The notes below the pieces were generated by a model, which worked only from the letters and a program-made list of their open reading frames with translations, had not been told where the DNA came from and did not search any database. 57,166 nt of DNA, taken from positions 1 to 57,166 of the forward strand of contig CANKZX010000004.1 of assembly GCA_947488275.1 (NCBI GenBank), in the 5' to 3' direction. The DNA comes from Alphaproteobacteria bacterium. GTDB lineage: Bacteria; Pseudomonadota; Alphaproteobacteria; Paracaedibacterales; CAIOTO01. A program made the translations under genes and the position numbers. Positions within the stretch are counted from its first letter, which is position 1; each line of letters opens with the position of its first letter. This document shows positions 2,164-50,323 of this stretch, in pieces.

Positions 2164-3099
2164 ATGGAGCAAAAGACAGTGCTTAAAAAACCTGATTGGA
2201 TTCGTGTAAAAGCACCTGTTTCAAAAGAATATCATGAGACAGCATCTTTGATGCGATCACTCAAACTCAAAACAGTTTGCGAAGAAGCTGCCTGCCCTAA
2301 CGTTGGTGAGTGTTGGTCAAAGAAACATGCAACATTCATGATTTTAGGGGATATATGCACGCGTGCATGTGCATTTTGTAATGTCAAAACAGGACGCCCT
2401 GATCTTTTAGATCCACATGAGCCTGAACGCGTTGCACAAGGTGTTGCGGAACTTGGACTCAGTCATGTTGTTATCACATCCGTTGATCGCGATGATCTTG
2501 ACGATGGTGGTGCGCATCATTTTGCCGACGTGATCACCCATATTCGAAAACGATCTCCTGGTACAACGATTGAAATTCTAACACCTGATTTCCTACGTAA
2601 AGAAGGCGCACTTGACATTGTTGTTGCTGCCAGACCTGATGTTTATAATCATAATCTTGAAACGGTGCCACGTTTGTATCCAACCGTCCGCCCTGGTGCA
2701 CGTTATTTCCATTCATTACGCTTACTTGACCGTGTCAAACAGCTTGATCCAACAATCTTTACTAAATCAGGAATTATGGTTGGTCTTGGCGAAACACGTG
2801 CAGAGGTTCATCAAGTCATGGATGATTTACGTGCTGCCAACGTTGACTTTATGACTATTGGGCAATATTTACAACCAACCCCCAAACATCACGATGTTAT
2901 TGATTTTATCACCCCCAATCAATTTGATGATTACGCAAAAATGGGACGCGGAAAAGGATTCTTACTGATTGCCGCAAGCCCACTTACACGGTCATCATAC
3001 CATGCAGGTGATGATTTTACTCGCCTACAAGCGGCTCGATTAGCGATACAGCCTCATGCAACGGCATCAAAAATAGGAATTTCTGGTGCCCATACATAA
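2164..3099 (+). CDS. lipA: lipoyl synthase
   Basis: [12 protein letters not shown], radical [17 protein letters not shown]. Confidence 0.98.
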
Positions 3100-3562
3100 A
3101 GAAAATCGTATCGTTCCCTATAAACCAGACCAAATATATCAACTAGTTTTAGATGTTGATCGTTATCCTGATTTCTTGCCATGGGTGCAATCAGCCCACG
3201 TTTATGATCGTGCAGAAACAATGTTTAATGCAGACCTTACAGTTGGATCATCCGTGATTAACCAAAGCTATTCATCAAAGATTACGTTTGGTGCGGTAGC
3301 AGATTCACTCCAAACGTATCGAATTGATGTGAAGCATACAAAAGGACCTTTTCATCATCTGCACAACTATTGGATTTTCAAACCTTATAGCAACGTCAAC
3401 ACATCCCTAGACAGTTCACCAACTCATACTGAAATTGAATTTTTTCTTGATTTTGAAATCAGCAATCCCTTTTTAAAACCACTACTACAACCCTTTTTAA
3501 ATCAAGCTGTCCACCTTATGGTTGATGCCTTTGAAAAACGCGCACATGCCCTATTCACATAG
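3086..3562 (+). CDS. RatA/Coq10-like START-domain (polyketide cyclase) protein
   Basis: [30 protein letters not shown]; follows lipA as is common in Alphaproteobacteria. Confidence 0.9.
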
Positions 3563-3584
3563 AGTGACTCTATATATTATTATA

Positions 3585-4838
3585 TTATTTTGAAATACAG
3601 GCACCACTAAGATCCGCGTTAATCTGGCATTTTTGATTGGATGGGCAAACAGTACCACCACTATCCGCGCACGTCTTTACAAGACCATCAACACATGCGC
3701 CCTCTTTTGTTATGACATCAATACGGCACACCTTTGTGCCGATACATGTAGGACCACCTGATTCAGCACACGTTTTAAAAACGCAGATTCCGCTTAAATC
3801 TGGATTAATTTTACATTTCTGATTATCAGCACATCGCGCACCATTTGGATCAGCACATGTTTTTGTTGTATCTGCCACACATTTACCAATTTTTGTACTC
3901 ACATCAAACCTACAAACATCGGCACCTTTGCAAATTGGCCCACCTGCATCCGCACATGTTTTTAAATAACATTCCCCATTCACGCACTTTCGATCAGAAG
4001 AACATTTATTATCCTTACATTTATAAATCTCACATTTTCCATTATTGCACCGCTCATTATCCGCACATGACTTCCCACCATTTGCACAATTTAATGGTTG
4101 ACATGATGAATTCAAACAAGGCTGATTTGCCAAACAAACACCATTTGTCTGCCCACTAACACACGCAAATCCTGCATCACATGACTTACTCCCTGTGCCA
4201 ACACATGCGACTACACAAGAACCATTCACACATGACGATTTATCACTTGGGCAAATTGGCCCCCCTGCATCTGCACACGTTTTCAAATAACACGTACTAT
4301 GATGCCCCTTCCGTTTCACACATTTACGACCTGCGTGGCACTTATTATGGTTAGATCCATGACAGCGAATAGCCTCACATTTTCCTTTTTCACACGCCTC
4401 ATTATCCGCACATAAAGCACCGCCATTTGAACAATTCGGTGATTCACAATATGAATTAGGGCATGGCTGACCCGCAACACATGCCATAGACGTTATTGAA
4501 TTTGTGCATATAAAACCATTTGCACATGGACTGCTATTGACACCCAAACACGATGGTTTGCAAACCCCTTTTACACACGATGACTTGTCCGATGGACATT
4601 TTGGTCCATCCGCGTCATCACATGTTTTTGGCACACATTTAGAGTTCTCGCACTTAGAATGCTTATCACATTCGGGTGTTTTCTTACCTGGAATATGATC
4701 AGAACACGTCAATTCCACACAAGAATAATTAGCACATTTACGATTGATCGCGCACACCGAATTACTTTTACAAGACCAGGCCGCATTCGCATAAAACAAG
4801 ATCATTAAAGTCATTACGAAATTCATTAATTTCATCAT
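3585..4838 (-). CDS. secreted Cys-repeat protein (short paralog A)
   Basis: Signal-peptide-like N-terminus ending ANAAWS; repeated KTCADxGGPxC units; start placed at ATG 4838 (ORF track 4874). Confidence 0.85.
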   Translation of the reverse strand: MMKLMNFVMTLMILFYANAAWSCKSNSVCAINRKCANYSCVELTCSDHIPGKKTPECDKHSKCENSKCVPKTCDDADGPKCPSDKSSCVKGVCKPSCLGVNSSPCANGFICTNSITSMACVAGQPCPNSYCESPNCSNGGALCADNEACEKGKCEAIRCHGSNHNKCHAGRKCVKRKGHHSTCYLKTCADAGGPICPSDKSSCVNGSCVVACVGTGSKSCDAGFACVSGQTNGVCLANQPCLNSSCQPLNCANGGKSCADNERCNNGKCEIYKCKDNKCSSDRKCVNGECYLKTCADAGGPICKGADVCRFDVSTKIGKCVADTTKTCADPNGARCADNQKCKINPDLSGICVFKTCAESGGPTCIGTKVCRIDVITKEGACVDGLVKTCADSGGTVCPSNQKCQINADLSGACISK

Positions 4839-4883
4839 ATGTTTCTCGCAAGACTTAATCGCACATTTCATCATCTTTTGCTC

Positions 4884-7800
4884 TTATTTTGTGTTTACTA
4901 GCGTTGCATTGCCAAGCACCACTGGTTTTGATAGTTGTTTTGCCAATTCTTCCAATCGATTTGCCATTTGAACTGAACTTTGCGCAGATTTCGCATTATT
5001 CGCTTGAATAACGACCGCTTCATCTTGCAACATCTGGGCAACTTGCTTCGTCAATTGATCTGAAACTTGCTTTGACTGCTGTGACATTTGCGCTGTTTGT
5101 TGACCAACTTGCTGGTTAAGCTGCTGGTAAACTTGTTGCACAATAGCCTGCTGTTGTTCGGGTTGCAACACAATGGGAGCAGCTTCTGAAGCAACGACCG
5201 TTACTGTCGGAGCAGCTGTATTACCCGTCGTTGTACTACTAACTGTCGTACTACTGCTTTTCGTTGCTGTACTGCCACTACTTATCTCACTGCTCGTTGT
5301 ACTGCTTCCTGCCGTACCACCCGTTACACTGCTACTCGTCGTAGGACTTCCAGATGGTATCACTGTGCACGTTGCTCCATCACAAGACTGACCTGCCACA
5401 CACAACGCACCAGACACACCTGTGCATTGCGTCCCTGCACCACATGCTGTTCCGCCATTCGCACATGTCAGTAACTTACAAATCGCCGTATCACAGAATA
5501 TACCATCAACACACCGTGTATTCGTCGTAGAACTAAAACACCCCTGCCCTGACGGACATGCTGTTCCACCATTTGCACAGGTTAATAGTTTACAAGCTGC
5601 CGTACTGGAACACGATGCATCATTTACTGAACACACTTTACCCGTTGTCGTGTTTGAGCAAATATAACCAGATGCACAGAGATCACCACCATTCGCACAC
5701 GTAGAAGCTGAACAAGTACCATCTGTTTGGCATATTGGTTTAGCCGAATCACAAGGCTTACCACCATTAATACAGTTAGCTGTTTTACAGACTGCCGTTC
5801 CAAGTGTTGCGCAGGGTTGCCCAGCTTCACATTTTTTACCTTCAGCCGTTGCACAAATCTGACCCGTTGAACATTTCTTTGCCGAATCATTCATACACGT
5901 TGATGGTAAACAGATTGCGCTACTTACACAACTTGCATCATTCAATGCACACAAACCACCTGTTGACGGATTTGTGCAGATTGATGACGGTGAAGCACAC
6001 AATGCCCCACCATTTGCACAGGTTAATCCTTTACAATATGCCTTATCACAAAATTTACCTGCCACGCATGCTTTATCTGTAACAGGATCCGTACATTGCT
6101 GCGTTGATTGACACATAATCGCTGATCCACCAACAGTTACTGACCCACCATTCGCACAGGTTGATGTCGTACAAATTGCCGTACTTGCACATTTTGCATC
6201 ACCTAAGGCACATAATCCACCTGTCGTAGGATCAACACATGCCTGACCAGCCGCACACGTTGTCCCCCCATTTACACAGGTCAGTTTTTGGCACGTTGCT
6301 CCATCACATTGTTTACCAAATGTACACTTACCATACGTACCAAGCGTAGTCGTTGATGCGTTTACACATGTCATACTGGCATTACAAAGCTTTGTCGAAT
6401 CATTAGCACACGTAAGTGGCTTACACACTGCACCACTTGCACAACTTGCATCACCAAGTGCACACAATACCCCTGTTGTTGAATCAACGCAACTTTCAGT
6501 TGCACTACATAGTGCACCCCCATTTGCGCACGTTAATGTTTGACATGTCGCACTATCACAAACCTTACCAGCTGTACATAATGCATATGAACCTGAAGCA
6601 CCCGCTTTCGGATTAACACAGCTTTGACCTGTCGCACACGTACTGCCGCCATTTGCACACGTTTTTGGTTTACAAACCGCTGTATTCGCACAGCTTTGAC
6701 CCGCCACACATGCAGCACCTGTCAATGGGTCTGAACACATACTATCCGCACTACACGTCGTACCACCGTTCGCACATGTCAGTGTTTGACAAATCGCATT
6801 ATCACACTGCGCCCCAGCCACACATGCTGAGAACATGGAAGAAACCGTTGATGATGTTCCACTTGACATGCTTGACGTACTGGTACTTGTACTAGATGTA
6901 CTCGTACTTGTTGACGTAAAAGGAGAAGGTTTCACACACGTCTGCCCCGCCGTACACACCGTTCCACCATTTGCACAAGTGAGTGGTTTGCAAACCGCTG
7001 TACTTGCACAACTCTGCCCTGGCAAACAGACACTCCCTTTTACAGGATCAACACATGTATTGCCAGCCGCACATGCCGCACCACCATTCGCACACGTTAA
7101 CACCTGACACGTTGCACCGTCACATAAAGCACCTGCCGCACATAATGTATATGAACCCGTCGATGTCGTACTTGGTTTAACACAGCTTTGCCCTGTTGGA
7201 CACGTTGCCCCACCTGTTGCACAACTTAATGGCTTACACATCGCTGTTGTTGCACAAGGTTGCCCTGCAGCGCATGTACTTCCCGTCGTAGGATCAACAC
7301 ACACTTGTCCTGTCGCACATGCTGTACCACCATTTACACATGTCAATGTCTGGCAAACCGCATTATCACACACTTTACCAGCAACGCATCCAATGAATGC
7401 CCCTGATTGCGTCACATTTGGCATCGCACATGTTTGACCAGCGGCACACGTTGCCCCCCCATTTGCACATGTTTTCGTTTTACAAACTGCCGTACCCATT
7501 TTTGCACAATCTTGCCCTGACACACATGTATTCCCCGTCGTAGGATCCGCACAAATACTGCTTGTTGCGCATGCTTTTGTTGTATCATTCATACACGTTG
7601 CCACTTTACAGGTTGCAGCCGCTGCACACGATGTATCACCCAGTGGACATAAGAGACCTGTCGATGAATTCGTACATATTTGCCCTGCCGCACATGTTGC
7701 GCCTCCATTTGCACATGTCAATGTTTGACACGTTGCCCCATCACATAAAGCACCTGCGGCGCATAATGCATATGAACCTGAAGCACCAGCTTTAGGGTTA

Positions 7801-9953
7801 ACACAACTCTGACCGCTCGCGCACGCTGCACCACCATTCGCACACGTAGATGGTTTACAGATCGCCGTACTATTTGTCACACATGTTTGACCTGCTGCAC
7901 ACAAATTACCTGTTGTTGGATCCGCGCAAATATTACCCGTTGAACATGCTTTTGTTGCATCATTCATACATGTTGCCACTTTACAAGTTGCCGTCGCTGC
8001 ACATGAAGCATCGCCTAATGGACACACCTTTCCTGTTGATGAATTCGTACATATTTGCCCAGTACCACATACCGTTCCACCATTTGCACACGTCAATGTT
8101 TGACACATTGCACCATCACACAACGCACCAGCAGCACATGTAGAGAATATATTGGGATTCGTTGCACTTACATTCGCACAACTCTGACCAGACGCACATG
8201 TTGCCCCCCCATTCGCACAGGTTTTTGGCTTACAAATCGCTGTTCCAAGCGTTGCGCAATCTTGCCCTGATACACACGTATTCCCCGTCGCAGGATCCGC
8301 ACACAAACTATCAGCTGAACACGCTTTTGTAAGATCATTCATACAACTCGAAGGACGGCACACGGCTGCATTCGCACACGTTGAATCACCAATGGCACAT
8401 GTCAATCCATTCGTACCATTTGTACAAGACTGACCTGTTGGACAAACTGTTCCGCCATCTGCACACGTTAACTTTTTACATAATGCCCCATCACATGGAG
8501 AACCAGGTATACACGCCGCATACGTTGTGAGTGCCGTTGTTCCACTAGGCGTCCCCGTTGGTACAACAGCTTTTACACATGTTTCACCCGTACCACACGT
8601 CACACCACCATTTGCACACGTTTTTACCTGACACATCGCTGTATTAGAACACGTTGCATCCCCAAGCGGGCAAGTGCTCCCCGTCGTTGGGTTAATACAT
8701 GTTTGTGTTGTTGCATCACATGCTGTACCACCATTCGCACAGGTTAATGCTTTACAGACAGCACCGTCACATTGGGTGCCATCTTTACATTTTACATAGG
8801 ATCCTGTTGTTGTGCCACTTTGCACACAATCTTGACCTACACCACATGCCGTTCCACCATTCGCACACGTTAATGGCTTACAAATCGCTGCGTCAGAACA
8901 TGTCGCATCACCAACGGGACATACTTTGCCTGTCGTTCCATTCACACATGCTTGCCCTGTCGCACATACTGCACCACCATTTGCACATGTTAACGCTTTA
9001 CACTGCGCAGTGTCAGCACCTGTTTGCCCCGACACCCAGGCTTGGAAGGTTCCTGTAACCGTTCCAGGTTTCACACACGTTTGACCTGTTGTGCAGGCTG
9101 TACCGCCATTCGCACACGTTTTTGCCTTACAGACAGCCGTCCCATCTTTTGCACAAGCAGCACCAGCAGCACACGCAATACCCGTTGTTGGATCCGCACA
9201 TATTTTGTCAGCTGTACATGATTTTGTCGTATCATTCATACATGTTGATACTTTACACGTCGCTGTTGCATTTAATGCACATGGTTGACCTGCCAAACAT
9301 TGATTTCCTGTCGATGGGTCAACGCAAAGACTTCCCGCCGCACACGTCGCACCACCATTTGCACACGTCGCCGTCTTACATTGCGCTGTATTTGCACATG
9401 TTGCATCTCCACTCGCACATACCGCGCCTGTCGTAATATTTGTACAAACTTGACCAGTCACACAAGCCGTTCCACCATTCGCACAGGTTAATGTTTGACA
9501 TGTTGCTGTTTCAGCACCTGTTTGCCCAGCAACCCATGCTTGAAAGGTTCCTGTAACCGTTCCAGGTTTCACACATGTTGCTCCCGTTACACATGCTGCA
9601 CCACCAGTCTCCGCACATGTTTTCGTACGACAAATAGCTGTTCCAGCCGTCGCACACGTCTGACCTGCTGAACAAACAGCCTTTGTCGTTGGATCTGTAC
9701 ACAACTGACTAGAGGTACAGACAATACCACCATTTATACAGTTAGATGCTTTACACGTTGCTTTTTTTGTTGAGTCTGTTGTTGTTGCACACAACTGACC
9801 CGCAAAACACGTAGTACCAGTTAAGGGATCAACGCAAATCTGCCCTGCAGCACAGGGAGTTCCACCGCTTGCACATGTAGAAGCCTCTAATGCTCCCTCC
9901 ATAGCCGCACAGTTAAATAAAAGGAATAGTATGAATATAATTTTATTTAACAC
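4884..9953 (-). CDS. giant secreted Cys-repeat protein with Ser/Thr linker and Gln-rich helical C-terminus
   Basis: Roughly 40 TCANGG-type 4/6-Cys repeats; GAGGGA RBS 7 nt before GTG 9953, followed by a hydrophobic signal peptide (ORF track start 10001). Confidence 0.9.
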   Translation of the reverse strand: MLNKIIFILFLLFNCAAMEGALEASTCASGGTPCAAGQICVDPLTGTTCFAGQLCATTTDSTKKATCKASNCINGGIVCTSSQLCTDPTTKAVCSAGQTCATAGTAICRTKTCAETGGAACVTGATCVKPGTVTGTFQAWVAGQTGAETATCQTLTCANGGTACVTGQVCTNITTGAVCASGDATCANTAQCKTATCANGGATCAAGSLCVDPSTGNQCLAGQPCALNATATCKVSTCMNDTTKSCTADKICADPTTGIACAAGAACAKDGTAVCKAKTCANGGTACTTGQTCVKPGTVTGTFQAWVSGQTGADTAQCKALTCANGGAVCATGQACVNGTTGKVCPVGDATCSDAAICKPLTCANGGTACGVGQDCVQSGTTTGSYVKCKDGTQCDGAVCKALTCANGGTACDATTQTCINPTTGSTCPLGDATCSNTAMCQVKTCANGGVTCGTGETCVKAVVPTGTPSGTTALTTYAACIPGSPCDGALCKKLTCADGGTVCPTGQSCTNGTNGLTCAIGDSTCANAAVCRPSSCMNDLTKACSADSLCADPATGNTCVSGQDCATLGTAICKPKTCANGGATCASGQSCANVSATNPNIFSTCAAGALCDGAMCQTLTCANGGTVCGTGQICTNSSTGKVCPLGDASCAATATCKVATCMNDATKACSTGNICADPTTGNLCAAGQTCVTNSTAICKPSTCANGGAACASGQSCVNPKAGASGSYALCAAGALCDGATCQTLTCANGGATCAAGQICTNSSTGLLCPLGDTSCAAAATCKVATCMNDTTKACATSSICADPTTGNTCVSGQDCAKMGTAVCKTKTCANGGATCAAGQTCAMPNVTQSGAFIGCVAGKVCDNAVCQTLTCVNGGTACATGQVCVDPTTGSTCAAGQPCATTAMCKPLSCATGGATCPTGQSCVKPSTTSTGSYTLCAAGALCDGATCQVLTCANGGAACAAGNTCVDPVKGSVCLPGQSCASTAVCKPLTCANGGTVCTAGQTCVKPSPFTSTSTSTSSTSTSTSSMSSGTSSTVSSMFSACVAGAQCDNAICQTLTCANGGTTCSADSMCSDPLTGAACVAGQSCANTAVCKPKTCANGGSTCATGQSCVNPKAGASGSYALCTAGKVCDSATCQTLTCANGGALCSATESCVDSTTGVLCALGDASCASGAVCKPLTCANDSTKLCNASMTCVNASTTTLGTYGKCTFGKQCDGATCQKLTCVNGGTTCAAGQACVDPTTGGLCALGDAKCASTAICTTSTCANGGSVTVGGSAIMCQSTQQCTDPVTDKACVAGKFCDKAYCKGLTCANGGALCASPSSICTNPSTGGLCALNDASCVSSAICLPSTCMNDSAKKCSTGQICATAEGKKCEAGQPCATLGTAVCKTANCINGGKPCDSAKPICQTDGTCSASTCANGGDLCASGYICSNTTTGKVCSVNDASCSSTAACKLLTCANGGTACPSGQGCFSSTTNTRCVDGIFCDTAICKLLTCANGGTACGAGTQCTGVSGALCVAGQSCDGATCTVIPSGSPTTSSSVTGGTAGSSTTSSEISSGSTATKSSSTTVSSTTTGNTAAPTVTVVASEAAPIVLQPEQQQAIVQQVYQQLNQQVGQQTAQMSQQSKQVSDQLTKQVAQMLQDEAVVIQANNAKSAQSSVQMANRLEELAKQLSKPVVLGNATLVNTK

Positions 9954-10058
9954 GACGAAATCCCTCAGTTCATTACAACGTTTTATATGAATCTTATTCA
10001 AATCACCGCTTTAGGAGCGGAATAAAATTCTACCTAGATTAATCGTGCCAAACATAAA

Positions 10059-10073
10059 TTAATATTTAATTAA
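10059..10073. promoter_or_regulatory. CtrA-type box TTAA-N7-TTAA
   Basis: TTAA TATTTAA TTAA upstream of the 4884-9953 gene; region is very AT-rich. Confidence 0.4.
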
Positions 10074-10116
10074 AAATGTATAGTATTTTGACTCTTTTTA
10101 TAACATAACCATGCAT

Positions 10117-10146
10117 AAAAAATAGGGGGGCTCATCCCCCCCTTAT
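10117..10146 (-). terminator. intrinsic terminator after the 903-aa Cys-repeat gene
   Basis: G-run/C-run hairpin followed by a T tract on the minus strand. Confidence 0.75.
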
Positions 10147-10170
10147 CATCAAAGTATTTATATAAAGTTT

Positions 10171-12882
10171 TTATTTTTTTGCATCTTTATTCTGATTTTT
10201 ATCATCTTGATTTGCTTTTAGCAATTGATTTGCTAATTGTTCAAGACGCATCGCTGTTTGCATCGATAACTCAGCTGGCGATAAATTTGTACCACGTTGA
10301 GCCGCTTGTGCAGCTGCTTGTTCACTTAATAATTTTGTTACTTTAGCGGTTAATTCTTCAGCAACACCTTTTGATTGATAAGACAACTGTGCTTTCATAT
10401 CATTAATCATTTGCATTGCATTTGCTTGCTGCTGTGCATTTGATAATGAAGAGGTGTTATTTACAGATGAAAGCACAACACAGCTCGGTAAATTACACAA
10501 CTTACCAGCAACACATGGCATACCTGCGGAACTGACACACTGTTGCCCAGATGAACAGGGTGTTCCTCCATTTGAACAATTTAACGCAACACACATTGCC
10601 GAAGCATCAAGTGCACAAGCATCTCCTGGATTACATTTTTCATCATTTTTATTGGCACATATTTTACCAACAGCGCATGCTTTTGTTTCATCATTAATAC
10701 ATGTTTTTGCAACACATATCGCTGTTCCTAATGTCGCACACGACTGCCCAGCAACACAGCGTAACCCCGTCTTTGAATCTGAACACATTTTATCCGCACC
10801 ACATGCTTTAGAGACATCATTCATACAACTTGACGGTTGACACATCGCATTATTTGCGCATTTTGCATCACCGACAGCACAGAAACCACCTGTTACTAAG
10901 TTTGTACAGATAAGGCTCATCGGCGTTTTCCCATCACTGCTCATCAAAGAGTTTGAGCATATAGGTCCGCCATTTGCACACGTCTGTGTTTTGCAATAAG
11001 CATTGTCGCATAAAGGCCCCGCGCATGCTTTATCTGTTACAGGATCCGTACATTGCTCACCTGATTTACATACAATTGGTGAACCTCCAGGTACGTCAGA
11101 CCCACCATTCGCACAGGTTGCCTTTTTACACATTGCTTTTCGTGCGCATGTTAAATCATTTGGCGCACACACTTTACCCGTGGTTGGATCCGCACAAATA
11201 AATCCTTCTGTACAGCTGTCACCACCATTTGCACATGTCCGTGGCGCACAAGAACCATCGGATTGCTGCACAGGATTAGCCGCATCACATGGCGCACCAC
11301 CATTAATCCAACTCGCAGGCTTACAAACAGCTGTTGAATTAATCGCACACGGTTGACCAGCCTTACATAAAACACCTGTTGTTGGGTCTGAACAAACCTG
11401 ACCAGATGCGCATGCTTTTGCGGGATCATTCATACAAGATGATTGCTTACACGATGCCGTCACGATAAGTGTACCAGCAGCATTCATTGTTGGAATAGCA
11501 CACGCTTTACTAACTGAACAATTTGTTCCATCTGAATCGGAGCAAACCTGACCAGCAGGACATATTATGCCACCATTAACACATGATGCTGGTGCACAAA
11601 TTGCCATTTTACTATTAATAGATGACGTTGCGCATGCTTGTGTTGAAGCGCATGTTCCGCCTGACATTGGATCGATACATACCTGCCCTGCAGCACAAGC
11701 AGATCCACCATTGGCACATGATTTTGCAATACATGCACTTGAATTGGCGCCTATAAATACCTTACACATCTGTGTGGAGCCACATGCTGTGCCACAATTT
11801 TGTGTTTGACAAACAGCTGTATTCGCACAACTTGGGTCATTTGCCGCACAAGAAAATCCAGTGATAGGATTTGTACACACTTGACCCGAAGGACAGGTTA
11901 ACCCACCATTTGCACATGTCTTCCATTTACACGCCGTATTAAGCTTTATACCACTTGCCGCTGCATTTGATTGGCAAACGGTCGTACTTGGACACGCCGC
12001 CCCCCCCGATTCAGCACATGATTTTGCCACACAACTAAAGACACCATTAATATCACCTTGACATTTTTGACCTGACGGACAATCAGCCCCGCCATTGGCA
12101 CATGTCACAGGCTGACAGGTTGGGTTATAACACGATTGCCCAACGGCACATGTACCGCCTGTTGCCTGATTAATACACACACTTCCAGCCGCACATACCG
12201 TACCACCTGCAATATTACAAGGCAACGTACTTTGGCAAACACCATTCACACATTTTTGCGAATTCAAACACGTAACACCACCGTTTGTGCATGTTGATGC
12301 CTGACAAGAGGCATTCGCACATGGAAAACCTGGTGGACATAACACACCATCACTACTACGGCATGTTGTTCCCGAAGGGCACGCATTCGACCCAATTTCA
12401 TTACACGGTTTATCCGTACATTGACCGTTAGAGCTACACTTTTGTGACGCCGCACAAGTAACACCACCATTCAAACAATTATTTGGCATACACACAGGTG
12501 ATGCCGCACACGATTGCCCAACATTGCACTTTGTATTAAACACACGATCAACACACGTTTGACCTGTTGGGCAAATTGAACTATCTTCATAACAATTTTT
12601 AGCAACACACGTGCCAACACCCGTTAACGTAGAATATTTACATGTCTCATTAGCAGCGCATGTTTTTCCACCATTGCTGCAATTATTAGAACTAATTTGA
12701 CAATAAAAATTAACGACTGGCTTTCCAACCGCCAGATTTGATGCGGCGCTTGATCCATCAACAGGGCTTGTGCATATATATCCTGATGAACACTGTGAAT
12801 CATTAACACACGTACTTGACCATACCTGCGAAAGATTCAACAATAAACCAACCACAACTAAAAAACACATTTTTATCATCAT
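10171..12882 (-). CDS. secreted Cys-repeat protein (903 aa) with Gln/Ala helical C-terminus
   Basis: Signal peptide ending QVWS; TCANGG repeats; C-terminal tail similar to that of the giant paralog. Confidence 0.9.
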   Translation of the reverse strand: MMIKMCFLVVVGLLLNLSQVWSSTCVNDSQCSSGYICTSPVDGSSAASNLAVGKPVVNFYCQISSNNCSNGGKTCAANETCKYSTLTGVGTCVAKNCYEDSSICPTGQTCVDRVFNTKCNVGQSCAASPVCMPNNCLNGGVTCAASQKCSSNGQCTDKPCNEIGSNACPSGTTCRSSDGVLCPPGFPCANASCQASTCTNGGVTCLNSQKCVNGVCQSTLPCNIAGGTVCAAGSVCINQATGGTCAVGQSCYNPTCQPVTCANGGADCPSGQKCQGDINGVFSCVAKSCAESGGAACPSTTVCQSNAAASGIKLNTACKWKTCANGGLTCPSGQVCTNPITGFSCAANDPSCANTAVCQTQNCGTACGSTQMCKVFIGANSSACIAKSCANGGSACAAGQVCIDPMSGGTCASTQACATSSINSKMAICAPASCVNGGIICPAGQVCSDSDGTNCSVSKACAIPTMNAAGTLIVTASCKQSSCMNDPAKACASGQVCSDPTTGVLCKAGQPCAINSTAVCKPASWINGGAPCDAANPVQQSDGSCAPRTCANGGDSCTEGFICADPTTGKVCAPNDLTCARKAMCKKATCANGGSDVPGGSPIVCKSGEQCTDPVTDKACAGPLCDNAYCKTQTCANGGPICSNSLMSSDGKTPMSLICTNLVTGGFCAVGDAKCANNAMCQPSSCMNDVSKACGADKMCSDSKTGLRCVAGQSCATLGTAICVAKTCINDETKACAVGKICANKNDEKCNPGDACALDASAMCVALNCSNGGTPCSSGQQCVSSAGMPCVAGKLCNLPSCVVLSSVNNTSSLSNAQQQANAMQMINDMKAQLSYQSKGVAEELTAKVTKLLSEQAAAQAAQRGTNLSPAELSMQTAMRLEQLANQLLKANQDDKNQNKDAKK

Positions 12883-12929
12883 TTTGTTCCTTAATTTAAT
12901 AACGCCGCCCTGACAAACGCATCATATCT

Positions 12930-14672
12930 TTACGCACACACATTATTCGTTGCCGCACTACATGTTTGACCCACAGAGCATGTCGTTGGACATATAGATT
13001 TTGCCACACATAAACCACTTAAATCGGCATTCGTCTGACATTTTGATTTTGAATCACATGGATCTCCCCCCGCATCTGCACATGTCTTTGCCGCTGGCAC
13101 GCAATTCGCCGCACCACCAATTAGCCTGCAAACCGTACCAGAGGCGCATGAAGGTCCATTCGGATCTGCGCATGTCAAAGGCACACAGCTACCTGATCCA
13201 TTCAAATTTATTTGACATTTATTTCCTGGCAAACAGGCAGGTCCACCATTCAAACAATGTGGCGCCTGACATAAACCAAAAACACATGAACCTGAAAGAC
13301 ACGGTAAATTTGTACTGGGGCTTGTACATACCTGACCAGACGGACAAGATGTACTTCCATTACCCACACAAATTGTTTGACAAACACCCGCGCTACATAC
13401 CTGATTTGCCCCACATTTTGGTCCATCAACATCCATACATGTTTTTAGAAAACACGTTGATCGATTGACGCATTTACGATTTGAATCGGCGCAAACACCA
13501 TCACCCGTATTACACCAAACAATATTACATTTGTGATAATTACCATCCGCTCCATTTGCTAATTTATAAGGGATCGCGTTACTGCATACTTCATCATCAG
13601 CGCATTTTCCGCCTGTCGCACAATCAACAACTTGACAATAAGCACCTTGACAAGACTTGCCCGATACACATTTATTCCCACTTGTATCAACACAGACCTT
13701 ACCCGCATCACACGTTGAACCACCGTTCGAACAATTTGGCGCTACGCACATACCTGAACCACTATCACACACAGGTGTTGCTCCACTACATAAGGTTCCA
13801 CCATTACGGCAATCTGATGCGCGGCACACAGCCTTTGATGCACATGAAGCATCATTAACGGCGCAAATATAATTCTTGTCAGGGTCAACACAAATCTGAC
13901 TACCTGAACAAGGCGCTCCGCCAACTTCAGCACATGTCTTTGCCACACATGCACCAACACCATTTGTCACAGCGCATCGCTTATCCGCTGAACAGGCGCT
14001 TCCCACAGGATCATTCGCACAATTTGGCGCCTGACATGTTGGTGTAATACATGTCATATCACCAGGATTGCACTTAACACCGCTGCTAAAATTCGTGCAT
14101 ATACTTGCATTTGAAGGACATGAAACTCCTACATCAACGCATGTTCGCGCAATACATGTTCCTGCGCTAGCACCACTTGGTATGCTGCATTTTTGCATCG
14201 CTGTGCACTGCGAATCGTTTGTACATGAAAATGTTGTTGTGGCTAACTCAGCATCCGTTTTTGTGACACATGTTCCTTTATTACATTTTTGAGTCGTTAA
14301 ACATTCTGTATCACCTGTACATGTCTTCGTACCACACGTGTATATTTCATTTCCTGTTGTTGCATTTTTACTAAAAACACACGAAGGTTTATCAGGCGCT
14401 AAGCATTTATCCGTGCTTGTTACTAACCCACAATGTGACGTCTTACAAGCATAAGCACCAGCTGAATCCATTTGACAAAATTGCCCTGTCAAACACGCAC
14501 TTGCCCCATCTTCATTACATTGCTTGGTAACACATGCTCCAACACCATTTGTGATCACGCATTTTTGCGTTGAAAGTGCACATGGCGTCGTTGCCGAGCA
14601 TACAGCCGCTTTGGCAGCATCAATGCAACTAAACAAAGAAATGATAAGCAGCAAGTAGAGTTTTACCATCAC
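12930..14672 (-). CDS. secreted Cys-repeat protein (580 aa, short paralog B)
   Basis: Signal peptide ending AAKA; Cys repeats; KCQTNADLSGLC matches the end of paralog A. Confidence 0.9.
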   Translation of the reverse strand: MMVKLYLLLIISLFSCIDAAKAAVCSATTPCALSTQKCVITNGVGACVTKQCNEDGASACLTGQFCQMDSAGAYACKTSHCGLVTSTDKCLAPDKPSCVFSKNATTGNEIYTCGTKTCTGDTECLTTQKCNKGTCVTKTDAELATTTFSCTNDSQCTAMQKCSIPSGASAGTCIARTCVDVGVSCPSNASICTNFSSGVKCNPGDMTCITPTCQAPNCANDPVGSACSADKRCAVTNGVGACVAKTCAEVGGAPCSGSQICVDPDKNYICAVNDASCASKAVCRASDCRNGGTLCSGATPVCDSGSGMCVAPNCSNGGSTCDAGKVCVDTSGNKCVSGKSCQGAYCQVVDCATGGKCADDEVCSNAIPYKLANGADGNYHKCNIVWCNTGDGVCADSNRKCVNRSTCFLKTCMDVDGPKCGANQVCSAGVCQTICVGNGSTSCPSGQVCTSPSTNLPCLSGSCVFGLCQAPHCLNGGPACLPGNKCQINLNGSGSCVPLTCADPNGPSCASGTVCRLIGGAANCVPAAKTCADAGGDPCDSKSKCQTNADLSGLCVAKSICPTTCSVGQTCSAATNNVCA

Positions 14673-14789
14673 AATGATTCCTTAATATATCAACAAAAAA
14701 TCTCTGATCATTGAGCGCATTCAAAAGAAACGACATACATGATCGAGAAATATAAAATATTTCACCTAAAAATAGGGTTACATAGGAAA

Positions 14790-14805
14790 GTTAATATTTG
14801 ATTAA
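14790..14805 (-). promoter_or_regulatory. CtrA-type box TTAA-N7-TTAAC
   Basis: Minus strand reads TTAA TCAAATA TTAAC, about 120 nt upstream of the first gene of the Cys array. Confidence 0.55.
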
Positions 14806-14857
14806 ATATGAGATAGAAATGGGTATAATCAACAAAAGAAAATCTCTATTTATTTTT

Positions 14858-16282
14858 TTAAATCTTATTTTTATGATAAGGATCACTACTGAAAATCAAT
14901 ATGCCCTCTTTATCAACCCAAACGGGGATATAAATGGTATGAACACTTATTTTTTCTTTCACAGGAAGCGCCTGCGTCGTTTCTTCATCAATCATATCAT
15001 GCATTAAATTCATCGTCATATGCGCATCATTTAAAACCCAAAGTGCAAGCGCTATAGGATCTTCCACACGAATACAACCTGACGAAAGAGCACGCTCCCC
15101 CTTTTCAAATAATGATACTTGCGGTGTTCCATGCATAAAAATAGCACGATCATTTGCTAAAATGAATTTCAAATTACCCAATGCATTGTTAGGTCCTGGC
15201 TGTTGACGCACGGTATATGGAAAATGATCACGTGAAACTTCATCCCAATTCACAACTGTCGGATCCAGTAATTCACCATGCTGATCATATACACGGTACC
15301 CTGAACGTTCAAGATATTCGGGATCATGCAAAACCTTTCTAAGCTTATCTTTCATAAAAATACTAACAGGTACACCCCATGATGGATTCAATACAATACT
15401 TAAAATAGGTGACGAAAGATTCGGTGTTGGCCGACTCAAAAGCCCGACAATAACCGATTGCGCATGCTCTATACGATTTTGATTAACCGCAAACAAATCA
15501 TAAGTTGGCACATTAACAAGGATAAAACGCCCTTTCCATTCAGCTGAAAGTTGATCAAGCTGGGCAATCGATTCATGAATAAGGCGCACACGATTGGTTG
15601 GCGTCATATTCAGCAAACGACACGTGCGTAATCCCAAAATTCCATCCCTGTCAAGCGAATGACGTTCTTGAAACGCCCTCACCCCTTTTTCGACAGTTTC
15701 ATCAAACAATTCAAGATCAGACGCTGGATGATCTTTTGGCATAAATCCTAAATAAGTCAGTTGCTTTCGCATAACAGTCACAATAGGATCTCGCTCTCCC
15801 TTTTTTAATACCGAATTCAAACACGTAAATTGTGGCCAATGTTTTATATCATTTGCCATTTTTTGGTAAAGAGCCACCCCCTTTACAAGGGTTAAACGAA
15901 TATCAGTAAGCGTGAATGTTTTCTGTGCCTCTTCCGTTCCTATTTCACCCCCTACCACTCTTTCTACTGGCGTTTCTGTTTGCGCAACCTCTTTGGGCAT
16001 GGTCACGTCAACTGCATTGGTAGGCATCGACGCCTCGACAGACGTTATTCCAACAACATCAGAGACAATCTCAGATACAGAAAGACCTGTTGGTGGCTTT
16101 GCAGCAATGGGTATCTCTTGCGACGCTGTTACAGCTGGCAAAGATAGCCCAGCACCAGCCACACAAAAAGACTGCCAACATAAAAAGAGTATAATAAAAT
16201 AGGGCATTAAAAAATCATGAATCCTTATTAATTGACGTTGAGAAGAAGTTGTTTCACGAGATAACCCTACCATAAAATCCAT
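14858..16282 (-). CDS. L,D-transpeptidase (YcbB/LdtD-like) with peptidoglycan-binding domain
   Basis: VRAFQERHSL..DGILG PG-binding motif; RQQPGPNNALG; IFMHGTP...SSGCIRV catalytic motif. Confidence 0.93.
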   Translation of the reverse strand: MDFMVGLSRETTSSQRQLIRIHDFLMPYFIILFLCWQSFCVAGAGLSLPAVTASQEIPIAAKPPTGLSVSEIVSDVVGITSVEASMPTNAVDVTMPKEVAQTETPVERVVGGEIGTEEAQKTFTLTDIRLTLVKGVALYQKMANDIKHWPQFTCLNSVLKKGERDPIVTVMRKQLTYLGFMPKDHPASDLELFDETVEKGVRAFQERHSLDRDGILGLRTCRLLNMTPTNRVRLIHESIAQLDQLSAEWKGRFILVNVPTYDLFAVNQNRIEHAQSVIVGLLSRPTPNLSSPILSIVLNPSWGVPVSIFMKDKLRKVLHDPEYLERSGYRVYDQHGELLDPTVVNWDEVSRDHFPYTVRQQPGPNNALGNLKFILANDRAIFMHGTPQVSLFEKGERALSSGCIRVEDPIALALWVLNDAHMTMNLMHDMIDEETTQALPVKEKISVHTIYIPVWVDKEGILIFSSDPYHKNKI

Positions 16283-16487
16283 TAAAAATGTGTTAGCTTA
16301 TGCGGTGTATTTTTATCGATAATTTCGCGAAAATCATATAAAAAAGGCATATACTCATCCCCAACCATTTTACGAATTTTATCCTTTGAATTTTAGAAAA
16401 ATAATCTGAAATAGATATATGACGACTTTTCAAAACCAAATTATAGAATAGTTTTGACTTTTAAATAATATACTATATAATAGTCAC

Positions 16488-17609
16488 ATGATCCGAATTC
16501 AAAAAAATAGCATATTAAAGGACCTTGAGAAGAAAATTGTACTTCTTGTTGGTCCTCGACAAGCAGGAAAGACTTTTCTGGCAAAGGATATTGCGCGTTC
16601 ATTTTCCAATAGCGTTTATCTCAATTACGATCAAATAATAGATAAAAAAATCATTAAAGAACAAGCGTGGCTTAACAAAACAGATCTCCTTATTCTTGAT
16701 GAACTTCATAAAATGCCAAACTGGAAAAATTATCTTAAAGGCGTATTTGATACAAAACCAGAAAAAATGCGTATTTTAGTAACTGGAAGTGCGCGTCTGG
16801 ATATATACGATCATATGGGAGACTCATTAGCAGGTCGCTATTTTCGCCATAGGTTATTACCACTGTCTCTTTCTGAGTTAAAGCAAGCACATGAGCCTGC
16901 AGACATGGAAAGATTGATAAACAGAGGAGGTTTCCCCGAACCTTATTTTACAGAAGAACTCCTTGATTCAAAAAGATGGCGCGTTCAATATATAAATAGT
17001 TTATTGAGTACAGATATCTTTGAAATTGAAACAATCCATAATTTAAAAGGCATGCAACTTGTTTTTAATTTGCTGCGTAACAAAGTAGGATCGCCTATTT
17101 CCTATCAATCATTAGCTGAAGATGTTGGCGTGTCCCCTATGACTATCAAAAAATATATTCAGATTTTAGAGTCAATCTTTGTCATTTTTATCGTAACACC
17201 CTTTTCAAAAAATATTGCCCGCAGTCTTTTGAAAGAACCCAAAATTTATTTCTTCGATACAGCACTCGTTCAAGGAGATAGTGGCGCAATTTTAGAGAAT
17301 CTTGTGGCTATCAGTTTATTAAAAGCCATTTTTGCACGCGTGGATAATTTTGCAGAAGAATGTGCATTACATTATCTACGCACAAAAGATGGAAAAGAAG
17401 TTGATTTTGTTATCATAAAAGATCATGAAATTGAAACGATGATTGAAGTAAAAACATCCGACCAACAGATTAGCAAGACACTTTGTTTGTTTAGTGAAAA
17501 ATACGAAAAACAATCTGTTCAGCTTGTTCAAAATATTAAAAATGAATATAAAAAAGATACCATTGAAGTCAGAAGCGTCGAAGCTTATCTTTCTGAGTTA
17601 CTTTTATAA
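16488..17609 (+). CDS. AAA_14 ATPase with DUF4143 C-terminal domain
   Basis: GPRQAGKT Walker A, LILDELH, VTGSA, GGFPEP, KIYFFD, EVDF...IEVK. Confidence 0.9.
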   Translation: MIRIQKNSILKDLEKKIVLLVGPRQAGKTFLAKDIARSFSNSVYLNYDQIIDKKIIKEQAWLNKTDLLILDELHKMPNWKNYLKGVFDTKPEKMRILVTGSARLDIYDHMGDSLAGRYFRHRLLPLSLSELKQAHEPADMERLINRGGFPEPYFTEELLDSKRWRVQYINSLLSTDIFEIETIHNLKGMQLVFNLLRNKVGSPISYQSLAEDVGVSPMTIKKYIQILESIFVIFIVTPFSKNIARSLLKEPKIYFFDTALVQGDSGAILENLVAISLLKAIFARVDNFAEECALHYLRTKDGKEVDFVIIKDHEIETMIEVKTSDQQISKTLCLFSEKYEKQSVQLVQNIKNEYKKDTIEVRSVEAYLSELLL

Positions 17610-23634: not shown

Positions 23635-25206
23635 ATGATATTAAAATTTGTGACTTATATCCTTTTCCCCATTACACTGCACGTATTGCTAACGCATGCT
23701 GTGCAATCGAGCACATCGACCTCATCGTCATCGACAGCATCAGCGCCAACAACGCCAACGACATCACCTACCACACCATCACCCGATAAAAAGGCAGATG
23801 AAATCAAAACAGCGGAGAAGGCACAAATAGCCTCTCAAACACTCGATTCATTTTTACAAAATGGTCAAACAAGCACGTCTTCAACTGCTGCATCATCTAA
23901 CACACCTTCAGCTACATCATCCAATACGCCTTCAGCTGCACCAACGGGAACACTAAGTAGTTCTTCAAGTATGAATACATCAACACCACCTCCTTCAAAC
24001 GCAAGCGGTTCATCAAATACTGGATCAAATGGAGCATCTGGATCAACAAATTACGCCTCAAGTAGCAGCAATTACGTACCAGGTGCAAGCAACAGCTCTT
24101 CTGGGTCAACAAATTACGCCTCAGGTAGCAACAATTACGTACCAGGAGCCACATCTTTCAACCCAAGCAATAACAGTGGCAACGCATCTCCATACACAGG
24201 TAGTGGAAGCTATATGCCTGGCGTATCTACTTATGGACCTGGTTTTGCCAGTGCAGGCATGAACGGCAGCAATGGACTTGCCTCTGGCGCAAGTAATTAT
24301 CAAGTCGGCAATAATCCATATGGCAATTATGCTGCTGGTTCAAGTGCACAATATAGCCCAAGCTACCAACCAACCATTGCACCATCAAATTATACGGGAA
24401 GTATATCATCCAACACAACGGGACAAAATACTAATCAAACAGAATATCAATCCGCACAAACCCTCACAAATACAGTTGCTGAAGAAATCACATCCTATCG
24501 CGCTGCGACAGAACGCCTCGCAAAGGATACAGAAAAAGCCGCAAAACTAGCGAGAGAATCCGCAGCAAAAGCCGTTGCCGAAGCAACAGACGTCATTGTT
24601 GCTACACTTGCCAATCAACCAACCGTTTCTGAAATGGGAAGAAAAGCTCTAATAACTCTATCAAAAGCCGCACAAACAGCTGATCTTGAAAGCAAAGATG
24701 TTGAAGCCGATCCGCTCGCTACCCCTGCGCAAAAATTAGCCGCACAAAAATTAGCTACCCAATTAGCGGCAAACTATCAGGCACTCTATCAAGCGCAAAG
24801 CCTACAAGAAAATACCTTTAACGCCATTCAAACAGCCTCACAACTCGCTGAACGTGCACGTGATTTTGTAAAACCAATGATTCTTGCCGCCGATGCAGCA
24901 ATCAAAGCAAATGATATGGCGCAAGCCGCACTAGCAGCCGCTAAAAATGCAGATGGTAATGCAGCTCTCCCCATGTTCGACCTTAAAACCCCCGAATCTA
25001 TGCTCAATGCAGTGAACGATTGCCGTAAACGCACAAAAGAAGAATGCCAACATCGTGATACACATTGTATTTGGTTTAATGAAATTGTAGGATGCACCTT
25101 CAAATGCAACAGCGTTGCTAATCAATCTGTTTGCAGCACAATTGGCAAAGGAAAACTATGTATCTGGGGCGACAATCAAGGAAAACCATTCTGTTTCCAT
25201 AAGTAA
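23635..25206 (+). CDS. secreted Ser/Thr/Asn/Gly-rich protein with Ala-rich helical region and 8-Cys C-terminal domain
   Basis: Hydrophobic N-terminus; 63-bp-period duplication at 24037 and 24100; two CIW-containing 4-Cys units. Confidence 0.85.
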   Translation: MILKFVTYILFPITLHVLLTHAVQSSTSTSSSSTASAPTTPTTSPTTPSPDKKADEIKTAEKAQIASQTLDSFLQNGQTSTSSTAASSNTPSATSSNTPSAAPTGTLSSSSSMNTSTPPPSNASGSSNTGSNGASGSTNYASSSSNYVPGASNSSSGSTNYASGSNNYVPGATSFNPSNNSGNASPYTGSGSYMPGVSTYGPGFASAGMNGSNGLASGASNYQVGNNPYGNYAAGSSAQYSPSYQPTIAPSNYTGSISSNTTGQNTNQTEYQSAQTLTNTVAEEITSYRAATERLAKDTEKAAKLARESAAKAVAEATDVIVATLANQPTVSEMGRKALITLSKAAQTADLESKDVEADPLATPAQKLAAQKLATQLAANYQALYQAQSLQENTFNAIQTASQLAERARDFVKPMILAADAAIKANDMAQAALAAAKNADGNAALPMFDLKTPESMLNAVNDCRKRTKEECQHRDTHCIWFNEIVGCTFKCNSVANQSVCSTIGKGKLCIWGDNQGKPFCFHK

Positions 25207-48958: not shown

Positions 48959-50323
48959 TTAAAAGGATACTTTTGTACCAAGAATAATAACTGTACCCGA
49001 ATTATTTCCAACAGCATTTTGTGCCTTTAAATCTAAATTATAATATTTTTGCGCTGAATCAATAAACTTCTGATTTGTTCTTGTTTTAATAAAATTCACT
49101 TCACCAAAGAAAACAAGACCTTCTACGGCTTTAAAATCCAACGTTGTCGTAACTGTTTTCATTGTTGCTTTATTCGTTGCATCCGTTTTCCGATCCGATT
49201 GGAAATAACCAACCGCAGCCTGATAGGCACCAAACGTGTACCGTGTTCCCATATTCCACGCCTTCCCTGAATCACCTAAATCGGCACCTTCAGGATTATA
49301 CGATCCACGGGCGTCTTTATTACGCTTATAGCCTTGTATCAATTCCTTTGTCATCAGACGTGATTTTTGGTTGTTCAAGAATCCAGCCGCAACTTCAACA
49401 TCTTTGTACGTCATAAGCGCTGATAATTGATAGGCATTTGAATGCTGCGTCTTAAACACACGATTATCGGCAGGCAGTGGCGCACCCACACTATCATACC
49501 CAAGTGGGAAGACAACACGGGCTCTCTCCGTTAACAACAATGCATTTAAATTAATCTTAATATCTTTCCATACTTTTTCATAACTTGCACTGTAAACAAA
49601 GTTATTCAGACCAAAAGGCGCCTCCAAATTGTCAGGATACATACTTGTTTCATGCCCATACCCATTCATTGTTTGCGCAGACAAATTATTACGTCCTAAC
49701 TTACCAAGGTGTGACGTATTTGGCGTATAACTTACACCCACCTGAAAACCGTCAAGCGAAGGCGAAACCCAATTAACTTTTGTGGCAATATCAGGGGAAC
49801 CAATCATTGTCGCCCCTTTAACAACACCTTCAGAGAAATTAAAATAATCAGGCGCTGAGCCGCTAATCCCCCCTAAACCACCCATAATCGTATAAGCTGA
49901 TTGTGACATTGAATCATCAACACCTTTAACATTACCGACCTGCACTGACCCTAAATAATTATGGGTAAAAACAACGTAATTACGTGTCAAACTAGGGCTA
50001 GCTGCCGAAATAGATTCAAAATTAACAACGTAACCATAACCATAGCCTGTTGGCGTTTTTCCATTCACATTAAATGAAAGATCAGATTTAGGAACTCCAA
50101 TTGCTGCAGGTGGACCTCCTCGTCCATTTTCTTTATTCTTTTGAAGTGTACTTACGCCAATTACATTCGTAAAACCTGCTATTTTGAGCGCTGGCGCTGA
50201 TGACCCTGGCATGGTTATTGGTGGCGTTGGCGTTTCAGATTTACCTTCCTCTGCATGCACATTACTTAAACAACCAATAAACGCTGAGGTCATCATAAGA
50301 ATTTTATATTTATTATTTTTCAT
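48959..50323 (-). CDS. outer membrane porin (paralog 1)
   Basis: Signal peptide ending VHA; amphipathic beta strands; GVSYTP; C-terminal GTKVSF. Confidence 0.88.
   Translation of the reverse strand: MKNNKYKILMMTSAFIGCLSNVHAEEGKSETPTPPITMPGSSAPALKIAGFTNVIGVSTLQKNKENGRGGPPAAIGVPKSDLSFNVNGKTPTGYGYGYVVNFESISAASPSLTRNYVVFTHNYLGSVQVGNVKGVDDSMSQSAYTIMGGLGGISGSAPDYFNFSEGVVKGATMIGSPDIATKVNWVSPSLDGFQVGVSYTPNTSHLGKLGRNNLSAQTMNGYGHETSMYPDNLEAPFGLNNFVYSASYEKVWKDIKINLNALLLTERARVVFPLGYDSVGAPLPADNRVFKTQHSNAYQLSALMTYKDVEVAAGFLNNQKSRLMTKELIQGYKRNKDARGSYNPEGADLGDSGKAWNMGTRYTFGAYQAAVGYFQSDRKTDATNKATMKTVTTTLDFKAVEGLVFFGEVNFIKTRTNQKFIDSAQKYYNLDLKAQNAVGNNSGTVIILGTKVSF

Follow-up and report, generated by a model that had tools for sequence, protein, structure and literature searches.

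Four adjacent genes for signal-bearing proteins of tandem cysteine-rich modules in a symbiont-like alphaproteobacterium

The four genes and their cysteine-rich modules

The window analysed here is a stretch of 57,166 nucleotides, contig CANKZX010000004.1 of the Alphaproteobacteria bacterium assembly GCA_947488275.1 (genome G000 below). Between positions 3585 and 14672 it carries four co-oriented open reading frames (ORFs), arranged head to tail on the minus strand, whose products have a signal peptide followed by cysteine-rich modules in tandem. We labelled the genes D, C, B and A in the order of transcription:

12930..14672, minus strand: gene D, 580 aa with 81 Cys, first in transcription order
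10171..12882, minus strand: gene C, 903 aa with 109 Cys
4884..10001, minus strand: gene B, 1705 aa with 212 Cys, counted from the TTG at 10001
3585..4874, minus strand: gene A, 429 aa with 62 Cys

In brief, gene D encodes mixed modules of four and six cysteines and has the sequence AAGGA 6-9 nt ahead of its GTG/ATG start. Gene C encodes a signal peptide (predicted cleavage between ...LSQVWS and STC), approximately 20 modules and a Gln-rich, predicted helical tail of about 100 aa. Gene B encodes the longest protein, made up of 12.4% Cys, 15.5% Thr, 14.7% Ala and 11.4% Gly, with a Ser/Thr-rich insert inside module 1008-1074, a Ser/Thr-rich linker after the last module and a final Gln-rich, predicted helical tail of about 100 aa. 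Gene A encodes a signal peptide (...FYANA followed by AWSC) and mixed four- and six-cysteine modules, of which the C-terminal four-cysteine ones are similar to those of D. Its start lies 9 nt past the stop codon of B, and the two genes share a reading frame with one stop and three codons between them.

The start of gene B is most likely the GTG at 9953 (giving 1689 aa) and not the TTG at 10001, because a Shine-Dalgarno-like site, GAGGGA, lies 7 nt upstream of the GTG and the orthologue in a second species of the same genus (genome G005) has the same start. A public atlas gene call begins at a later ATG, which would drop the signal peptide; this start is disfavoured, since conservation at the protein level extends upstream of that ATG.

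All four N-termini consist of a basic residue followed by a hydrophobic core of 9-12 residues, and this is kept in the G005 orthologues. The four co-oriented genes with signal peptides described in an earlier note on this DNA, which was made from the sequence alone, are thus borne out by the ORFs and their conserved hydrophobic N-termini. The N-terminus of D, LLIISLFSC, is lipobox-like, with LFSC kept in the orthologues D5 (G005) and P0002, and D may be a lipoprotein. No further transmembrane (TM)-like window was found among the hydrophobicity windows of A, B, C and D, and searches of Pfam and NCBIfam gave no domain, in agreement with the earlier view that these proteins have no beta-barrel, TM anchor or enzyme domain.

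Cysteine makes up 12.1-14.5% of the four proteins (62 of 429 residues in A, 212 of 1705 in B, 109 of 903 in C and 81 of 580 in D). The earlier note had put the density at one residue in six to seven; the figure found here is about one in seven to eight. Across the 1087 ORFs of 150 aa or more that start with ATG in the genome (1.47 Mb in 69 contigs), the median is 1.2%, and the array proteins rank first to fourth. A 158-aa ORF elsewhere in the genome (C42:9025-9501, plus strand) also reaches 12% Cys; it is Asn/Ser-rich and of low complexity, has no module pattern, and was set aside as a probably spurious frame.

The cysteines, spaced mostly 4-8 residues apart, fall into modules with the pattern CxxGGxxC-x5-C-x8-C-xxGxxC-x7-C (profile A1), repeated in tandem behind the signal peptide. 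B and C are strongly positive for this six-cysteine family, A and D partly so. Using a profile built from 29 units of B, we found 36 modules in B that abut without gaps over residues 42-1548, each of about 40 aa and with six Cys, except for two modules that lack Cys4 and Cys5. The same profile matched 21 stretches of C. A and D consist of a more diverged mixture of four-cysteine units of about 25-30 aa and six-cysteine units of about 37-51 aa. The repeat consensus of the earlier note, TCANGGxxCxxGQxC…C, is correct for B and C. At the DNA level, TRF detected only one recent duplication, a three-module unit of 375 nt at 7424-8345 in B (2.5 copies, 71% matches), from which it follows that most of the modules are old.

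Every module has an even number of cysteines. The predicted mature proteins, delimited by rule-based guesses of the cleavage sites, have 60, 210, 108 and 80 Cys in A, B, C and D, all even as well. We compared 264 instances of the module: 224 retain the full six cysteines, 35 are truncated at the end of the profile, and five lack Cys4 and Cys5 together. This is the sole internal pattern of cysteine loss and it is seen in two genera (in B, its G005 orthologue and the protein P0007). The joint loss suggests that Cys4 and Cys5 form a local pair on a four-cysteine core, in which case Cys1, Cys2, Cys3 and Cys6 would make up the other two bonds.

The Gln-rich tails of B and C are homologous to each other (E 1.9e-6) and were found elsewhere only in the G005 orthologues, among 10 genomes of the family searched. 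A model of the C-terminal 355 aa of C by AlphaFold2 (AF2), made from an alignment of five rows, gave a predicted local distance difference test (pLDDT) of 47, too low for more than an indication that the tail may contain two long helices. A predicted complex of the B tail with the C tail scored 0.10 against a mark of 0.32, the fold of the partners being itself uncertain.

For the modules, we modelled three consecutive units of B (residues 594-718) with AF2 from an alignment of 106 three-module windows of both genera. The best model has a pLDDT of 90.8 and a predicted template modelling (pTM) score of 0.77, and the pLDDT of the five models was 90.8, 90.7, 89.5, 64.6 and 62.1. It shows three similar units of short strands and turns. 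A Foldseek search of the PDB with this model gave no match at E<=1e-3; the best rows (E 0.69, TM-score at most 0.21) are tandem domains of the epidermal growth factor (EGF) and tumour necrosis factor receptor (TNFR) types. In these structure searches we thus found no fold shared with a solved module, be it EGF-like, of the TNFR cysteine-rich domain or of the follistatin type. It should be noted that small elongated modules score poorly in all three of the tools used, and we therefore speak of no match found and not of a new fold.

Conservation, relatives and distribution

The genome of the second species, G005, contains the same four genes between the same neighbours, and this was the only locus recovered in a single-protein scan for related loci. 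Synonymous divergence (dS) between the two arrays is about 0.8. The dN/dS values of A (0.161), of B in its two halves (0.124 and 0.136), of C (0.105) and of D (0.094) fall, as we read them, within the range of the flanking genes (0.02-0.15). Cysteine is kept in both species at 453 of the 457 aligned positions where either has one (61 of 65 in A, 202 of 202 in B, 109 of 109 in C and 81 of 81 in D).

The G005 orthologue of B is split by a single in-frame TGA (locus L017, G005:C4, 7929-7931) into ORFs of 823 and 806 aa. Both halves are still constrained, with dN/dS about 0.13, so the TGA is either a recent lesion or an assembly error. Selenocysteine at this position was considered and dropped, as the corresponding codon of G000 encodes Gly and not Cys.

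The array was also found in lake and freshwater metagenomes, in 20 entries from 12 studies, none of them RNA runs; six entries hold at least half of the sampled words. Contigs from four runs of four studies cover 29-30 of the 30 bins of window positions 2800-16500 at even depth over flanks and array, and two metagenome contigs bridge the junction between RatA and gene A. Six population indels were seen in other lake metagenomes. Those at window positions 3573, 10135, 16312 and 16340 are intergenic, and those at 5312 and 6883 lie inside B. The two in B are of 12 and 6 nt, in frame and in Ser/Thr-rich stretches, and all indels that are not multiples of three are intergenic.

Two genomes of a second genus of the family (g2), G007 and G008, contain arrays of about 20 kb with four co-oriented genes for proteins of about 780, 1960-1970, 1986 and more than 2100 aa, built from the same six-cysteine module. 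The first three of these proteins end in NHL beta-propellers. Pfam gave NHL or TEN_NHL above the cut-off for the 1986-aa protein of G008 and for the metagenome proteins P0006, P0007, P0009 and P0013; the members of about 780 and 1960 aa have NHL matches in six-frame translation or NHL-like C-termini. The order in these relatives is signal peptide, modules and C-terminal NHL propeller, so that in genus g2 the module forms a long stalk between the signal peptide and the propeller.

These module and NHL giants of G007, G008 and G009, which carry the annotation 'MAG: hypothetical protein' (e.g. MBA4249762.1 and MBA4249763.1), share with A-D the module, the signal peptide, the four-gene co-oriented arrangement and the bacterial family, and P0005-P0009 and P0013, from metagenomes, belong to this type as well. 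They differ in having stalks of 780 to more than 2100 aa, mostly NHL-ended, and a locus beside gap and tkt. A-D, in contrast, lack an NHL domain, and the end of B and of C is formed by the Gln-rich tail, predicted to be helical, that is seen only in G000 and G005.

In genus g2 the array lies directly upstream of gap and tkt. Upstream of gap-tkt in G000 we found three tandem double-NHL paralogues of 681-692 aa that bear signals and have almost no Cys (C14:11625-17954). A fourth NHL protein of G000, of 386 aa, is encoded at C10:26215-27375. The fusion in genus g2 of what are separate genes in G000 hints, in the manner of a Rosetta stone, that rods and NHL proteins of G000 work together; we take it as a hint only. 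Another species of the genus of G000 (genome G002) encodes a protein of 562 aa that combines a signal peptide and one single Cys module with a C-terminal NHL domain (L040, G002:C15, 6550-8238), which may be a minimal form of stalk and propeller.

A six-frame search of 62 genomes of the order detected the module in six, all of one family, and gave no match in 52 genomes of nine other families. The positive genomes are G000, G005 and, with one weak match, G002 in genus g1, and all three genomes of genus g2. In three other species of genus g1 the gene order GreA-ThyX-LipA-RatA is kept, and the region downstream differs and contains no array.

The module matched no characterised family, whereas full-length matches to one would, according to the earlier note, have refuted its reading; the searches that bear on this were made with whole proteins, single pieces and repeat profiles. 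With Pfam, none of the four proteins matched a family at E<=1, and with NCBIfam the only row was a 10-bit chance one. The best Pfam row for single pieces was Dickkopf_N (E 0.58), whose 11 bits fall short of the cut-off of 25. Models of the Myxococcus-type cysteine-rich repeats, which we take to be included in the NCBIfam and Pfam libraries, gave no match to A-D. A profile search against PDB sequences had as its best match a 28-aa peptide (E 0.01).

A word-based search with C returned two proteins among 8000 scored candidates, both of the same genus-level group. The module proved to be very rare: a profile of 119 modules, run against 1,835,955,588 cluster representatives, matched 18 proteins at E<=1e-3, of which 12 at E<=1e-10. 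The 12 strong matches are orthologues of C and D, or belong to a second type with 'LPCGKGG' modules. The weaker matches are not convincing; they include a protein of Pythium, metagenome proteins with and without EGF domains, and one protein of the Cystobacterineae. The best scores in a protein atlas, 0.81 and 0.78 (clusters of nematode DUF7107 and Dp87/TILa), are within the range of noise and were discarded. The host mimicry proposed in the earlier note found no backing from homology, as these searches gave no eukaryotic relative beyond borderline matches.

The Cystobacterineae protein, MCL2012693.1 (P0019 cluster, E 4.6e-4), comes from a metagenome-assembled genome (MAG). It has repeated four-cysteine units, CQNGGTYC-x-AG-x-x-C-x4-C, followed by a propeller-like region, and these units are similar to the short units of the type CxNGGxxC in A, C and D. 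It differs in having four and not six Cys per unit and only a PQQ_2 match below the cut-off; its score is marginal, and a relationship is not established.

Full-text literature searches, which did not cover supplementary tables, returned no publication on such proteins. Term searches of PMC8163844 and PMC11909080 gave no occurrence of 'cysteine' or 'NHL'; relatives might be among the uncharacterised secreted proteins that are tabulated in the supplements of PMC8163844.

Organism, export machinery and flanking genes

The best named matches of the leucyl-tRNA synthetase (LeuRS) are to a 'Candidatus Paracaedibacteraceae' MAG (76% identity), Ca. Finniella inopinata (63%), Holosporales MAGs (about 60%), Odyssella (58%) and Paracaedibacter symbiosus (57%), a comparison of similarity and not a phylogeny. 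ATP/ADP translocases are encoded in all five genomes of the family that were tested, with two copies in G000. The same five genomes each encode the sheath protein TssC of a type VI secretion system (T6SS), together with one secretin, and none encodes a VirB4-type type IV secretion system (T4SS). The three TssC matches and the two ATP/ADP translocase genes of G000 lie at C38:1667-2569, C20:14459-16769, C11:10898-12373 and C54:387-1832.

This gene content fits an obligate intracellular symbiont of freshwater protists. The translocases and the nearest LeuRS matches, in Paracaedibacteraceae, Finniella and Holosporales, speak for the symbiont-like alphaproteobacterium that the earlier note had envisaged. 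According to PMC8163844, a Paracaedibacter-like symbiont of Bodo saltans has a genome of 1.39 Mb with 40.6% G+C and a T6SS, and our source organism resembles that symbiont. Genes for DsbA-like, DsbB and DsbD proteins are present; the earlier note had named the DsbA/DsbC complement as a check.

Two further features on the strand of the array bear on its transcription and possible anchoring:

10124..10143, minus strand: candidate terminator between C and B, a G+C-rich hairpin followed by a run of T, from a consensus scan
14858..16282, minus strand: L,D-transpeptidase (Ldt) upstream of D, with a YkuD catalytic domain and PG_binding_1

The hairpin could possibly split the array into two transcription units, D-C and B-A. 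The region has no excess of terminator-like sites, with 10 observed against 12.1 expected. The adjacency of the L,D-transpeptidase is kept in G005. By analogy with the Ldts that link Lpp and outer-membrane proteins to peptidoglycan, we regard this neighbour, a candidate member of the system that sits at a synteny breakpoint, as a possible lead towards peptidoglycan tethering.

The remaining flanking genes encode GreA, ThyX, LipA and a RatA/COQ10-like protein on one side and an AAA/DUF4143 protein and PntAB on the other. The AAA_14/DUF4143 ATPase gene (16488-17609, plus strand) lies between the L,D-transpeptidase gene and pntA in G000, and is absent from the matching interval in the G005 ORF list, indicating a small indel beside the array. 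Farther along, the window contains a Porin_4-type outer-membrane porin gene (48959-50323, minus strand) and a 466-aa ORF with no Pfam match (50590-51990, minus strand) that may encode another porin, in diverged form. Nor did Pfam assign a family to two further ORFs, at 23635-25206 (523 aa) and 56026-56928 (300 aa).

Possible function of the array proteins

We suggest, with a probability of about one half, that A-D are Sec-exported proteins with internal disulfide bonds that form rods or stalks at the cell surface and serve as an adhesin or coat for host contact or protection. After export by Sec, the periplasmic Dsb system would oxidise each module into three internal disulfides, and the result would be a stiff, protease-resistant rod of beads on a string. 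Tandem EGF-like modules span 2.5-3 nm each. If the same held for the modules described here, the 36 of B would make a rod of roughly 100 nm; the number of modules is about 20 in C and about 10-12 in each of A and D. A lipid anchor is possible for D. B and C carry mucin-like Ser/Thr linkers, and their shared Gln-rich tail could be an anchoring or bundling element. The rods would then project from the envelope as surface fibrils, a stalk or a coat, and serve attachment to the protist host or protection within it.

Eukaryotic rods of Cys-rich modules (EGF-like, TNFR, follistatin/Dickkopf-type) likewise consist of six-cysteine units of about 40 aa, head to tail and extracellular. Bacterial fibrillar adhesins likewise have a signal peptide and a long stalk of tandem repeats, comparable to the 36 and about 20 modules of B and C, and the propeller of the relatives could be their head. 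The known stalk domains of such adhesins are mostly Ig-like beta-sandwiches. A-D differ from fibrillar adhesins in having no head domain, known anchor or known export signal. Protist surface antigens, such as the immobilisation antigens of Paramecium and Tetrahymena and the variant-specific surface proteins of Giardia, have a high content of Cys, Thr, Ala, Ser and Gly, and their Cys recur periodically; the resemblance of the array proteins is compositional only, and they have no Pfam match and no glycosylphosphatidylinositol (GPI) or TM anchor.

Several observations weigh against rods at the surface. No established anchor and no beta-barrel, sortase-type or type I or type V secretion (T1SS/T5SS) signal was found in A-D. 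In particular, Pfam detected neither an autotransporter or T5SS translocator nor an adhesive head domain, and the C-termini are Cys modules (A and D) or predicted helices (B and C). The one secretin of the genome could belong to a pilus rather than to a type II secretion system (T2SS), which leaves the route across the outer membrane putative. The lipobox of D has an atypical Phe at position -2, and the helical tails are predicted at low confidence (pLDDT 45-69). Furthermore, the array was not found in four of the six other species of the genus (G002 has its one weak match) and is therefore not essential to the lifestyle, and G002, a genome with no array, has the Dsb genes as well.

An alternative, which we consider doubtful, is that the proteins form a periplasmic store or a layer that strengthens the envelope, hardening a transmissible stage or being released on infection, in the manner of Holospora or of chlamydial OmcA/OmcB. 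The neighbouring L,D-transpeptidase might provide a tether of such a layer to peptidoglycan, and D, as a lipoprotein, one to the outer membrane. It would suit proteins that carry Sec signals and no dedicated signal for outer-membrane export, of which one is lipoprotein-like, next to a co-oriented Ldt gene that is kept in G005. In PMC11909080, infectious forms of Holospora are described as stocking their periplasm with specific proteins.

OmcA and OmcB, for their part, are presumably similar to the array proteins in being Cys-rich, exported, encoded side by side, in a bacterium obligately intracellular in a host cell, and in including one small lipoprotein-like member. The array proteins differ from them in their regular even-Cys modules, much higher Cys content and repetitive build, and gave no Pfam match to the chlamydial outer-membrane protein families. 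Their even Cys counts leave no obvious free cysteine for cross-links between molecules, a rod of about 100 nm would fit poorly in a normal periplasm, and in the relatives this stalk terminates in a ligand-binding propeller. The adjacency of the Ldt gene, at a synteny breakpoint, is perhaps accidental. Taken together, the even number of cysteines per module, the even totals of the mature proteins and the position of the module as a stalk ahead of NHL propellers make rods or stalks with internal cross-links the likelier arrangement, compared with a chlamydial-type lattice of intermolecular disulfides.

Somewhat less probable still, in our view, is that the proteins are released as soluble effectors or decoys, e.g. 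via a T2SS, and bind extracellular-type or lumenal ligands of the host as EGF- and TNFR-like modules do. Their modular, disulfide-rich build does resemble that of eukaryotic ligand-binding rods, which also head the non-significant Foldseek rows, a secretin is present, and the genes are accessory and lineage-specific. A cleavage of polyprotein precursors into small knottin-like peptides (toxin, antimicrobial or signalling) appears improbable. The six-cysteine units of about 40 aa have the size of disulfide-rich peptides, and the weak PDB sequence matches are to peptides of 27-36 aa and toxins (E 0.01-1.4). However, the module junctions (CKxx followed by TC, CQTL followed by TC) contain no conserved dibasic or other processing site, the locus has no maturation protease, and the NHL fusion in relatives argues for a stalk.

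Buffering of metals or redox state by free thiols, as in metallothioneins, is more improbable again; the very high Cys content would suit it, but the export signals lead to an oxidising compartment with DsbA/B, the six-cysteine spacing is fixed with cysteines lost in pairs, and the typical CxC/CxxC metal clusters are absent. Misassembled eukaryotic DNA, of which the earlier note had asked for a check, or decaying pseudogenes, as the array G+C of 44-48% against about 40% in the flanks and the TGA in the G005 copy of B might suggest, are excluded as far as these data reach by the independent G005 MAG with its synteny, the even-depth and junction-bridging metagenome contigs, the low dN/dS and the bacterial housekeeping genes of the flanks, the raised G+C being due to the Cys, Gly, Ala and Thr codons.

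A bolder form of the surface-rod proposal, which we put forward tentatively and hold to be unlikely in its entirety, is that the array encodes an unrecognised type of bacterial surface fibre, with a new disulfide-knotted mini-domain fold, rods of up to about 100 nm and NHL heads that are fused in one genus and associated non-covalently here, and that this fibre would be the coat or attachment organelle of a clade of protist endosymbionts.

What is new here is the module family, together with its extreme Cys content in a bacterium, its restriction to one family of symbionts and its use, as an alternative, in fusion with NHL heads; as an architecture, the secreted stalk of disulfide-rich tandem units is of an already known kind. 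Bacterial proteins with one cysteine per eight residues are exceptional. The module belongs to no curated family and has no detectable solved relative, and its structure is predicted with confidence. It may offer a compact, protease-resistant scaffold for protein engineering. Genes built from the module are among the largest in reduced genomes of 1.3-1.6 Mb, which implies strong selection to keep them. In the literature searched, little is said of how, at the molecular level, Paracaedibacteraceae-like symbionts of protists make contact with the host, and the array and the NHL paralogues are concrete candidates for it.

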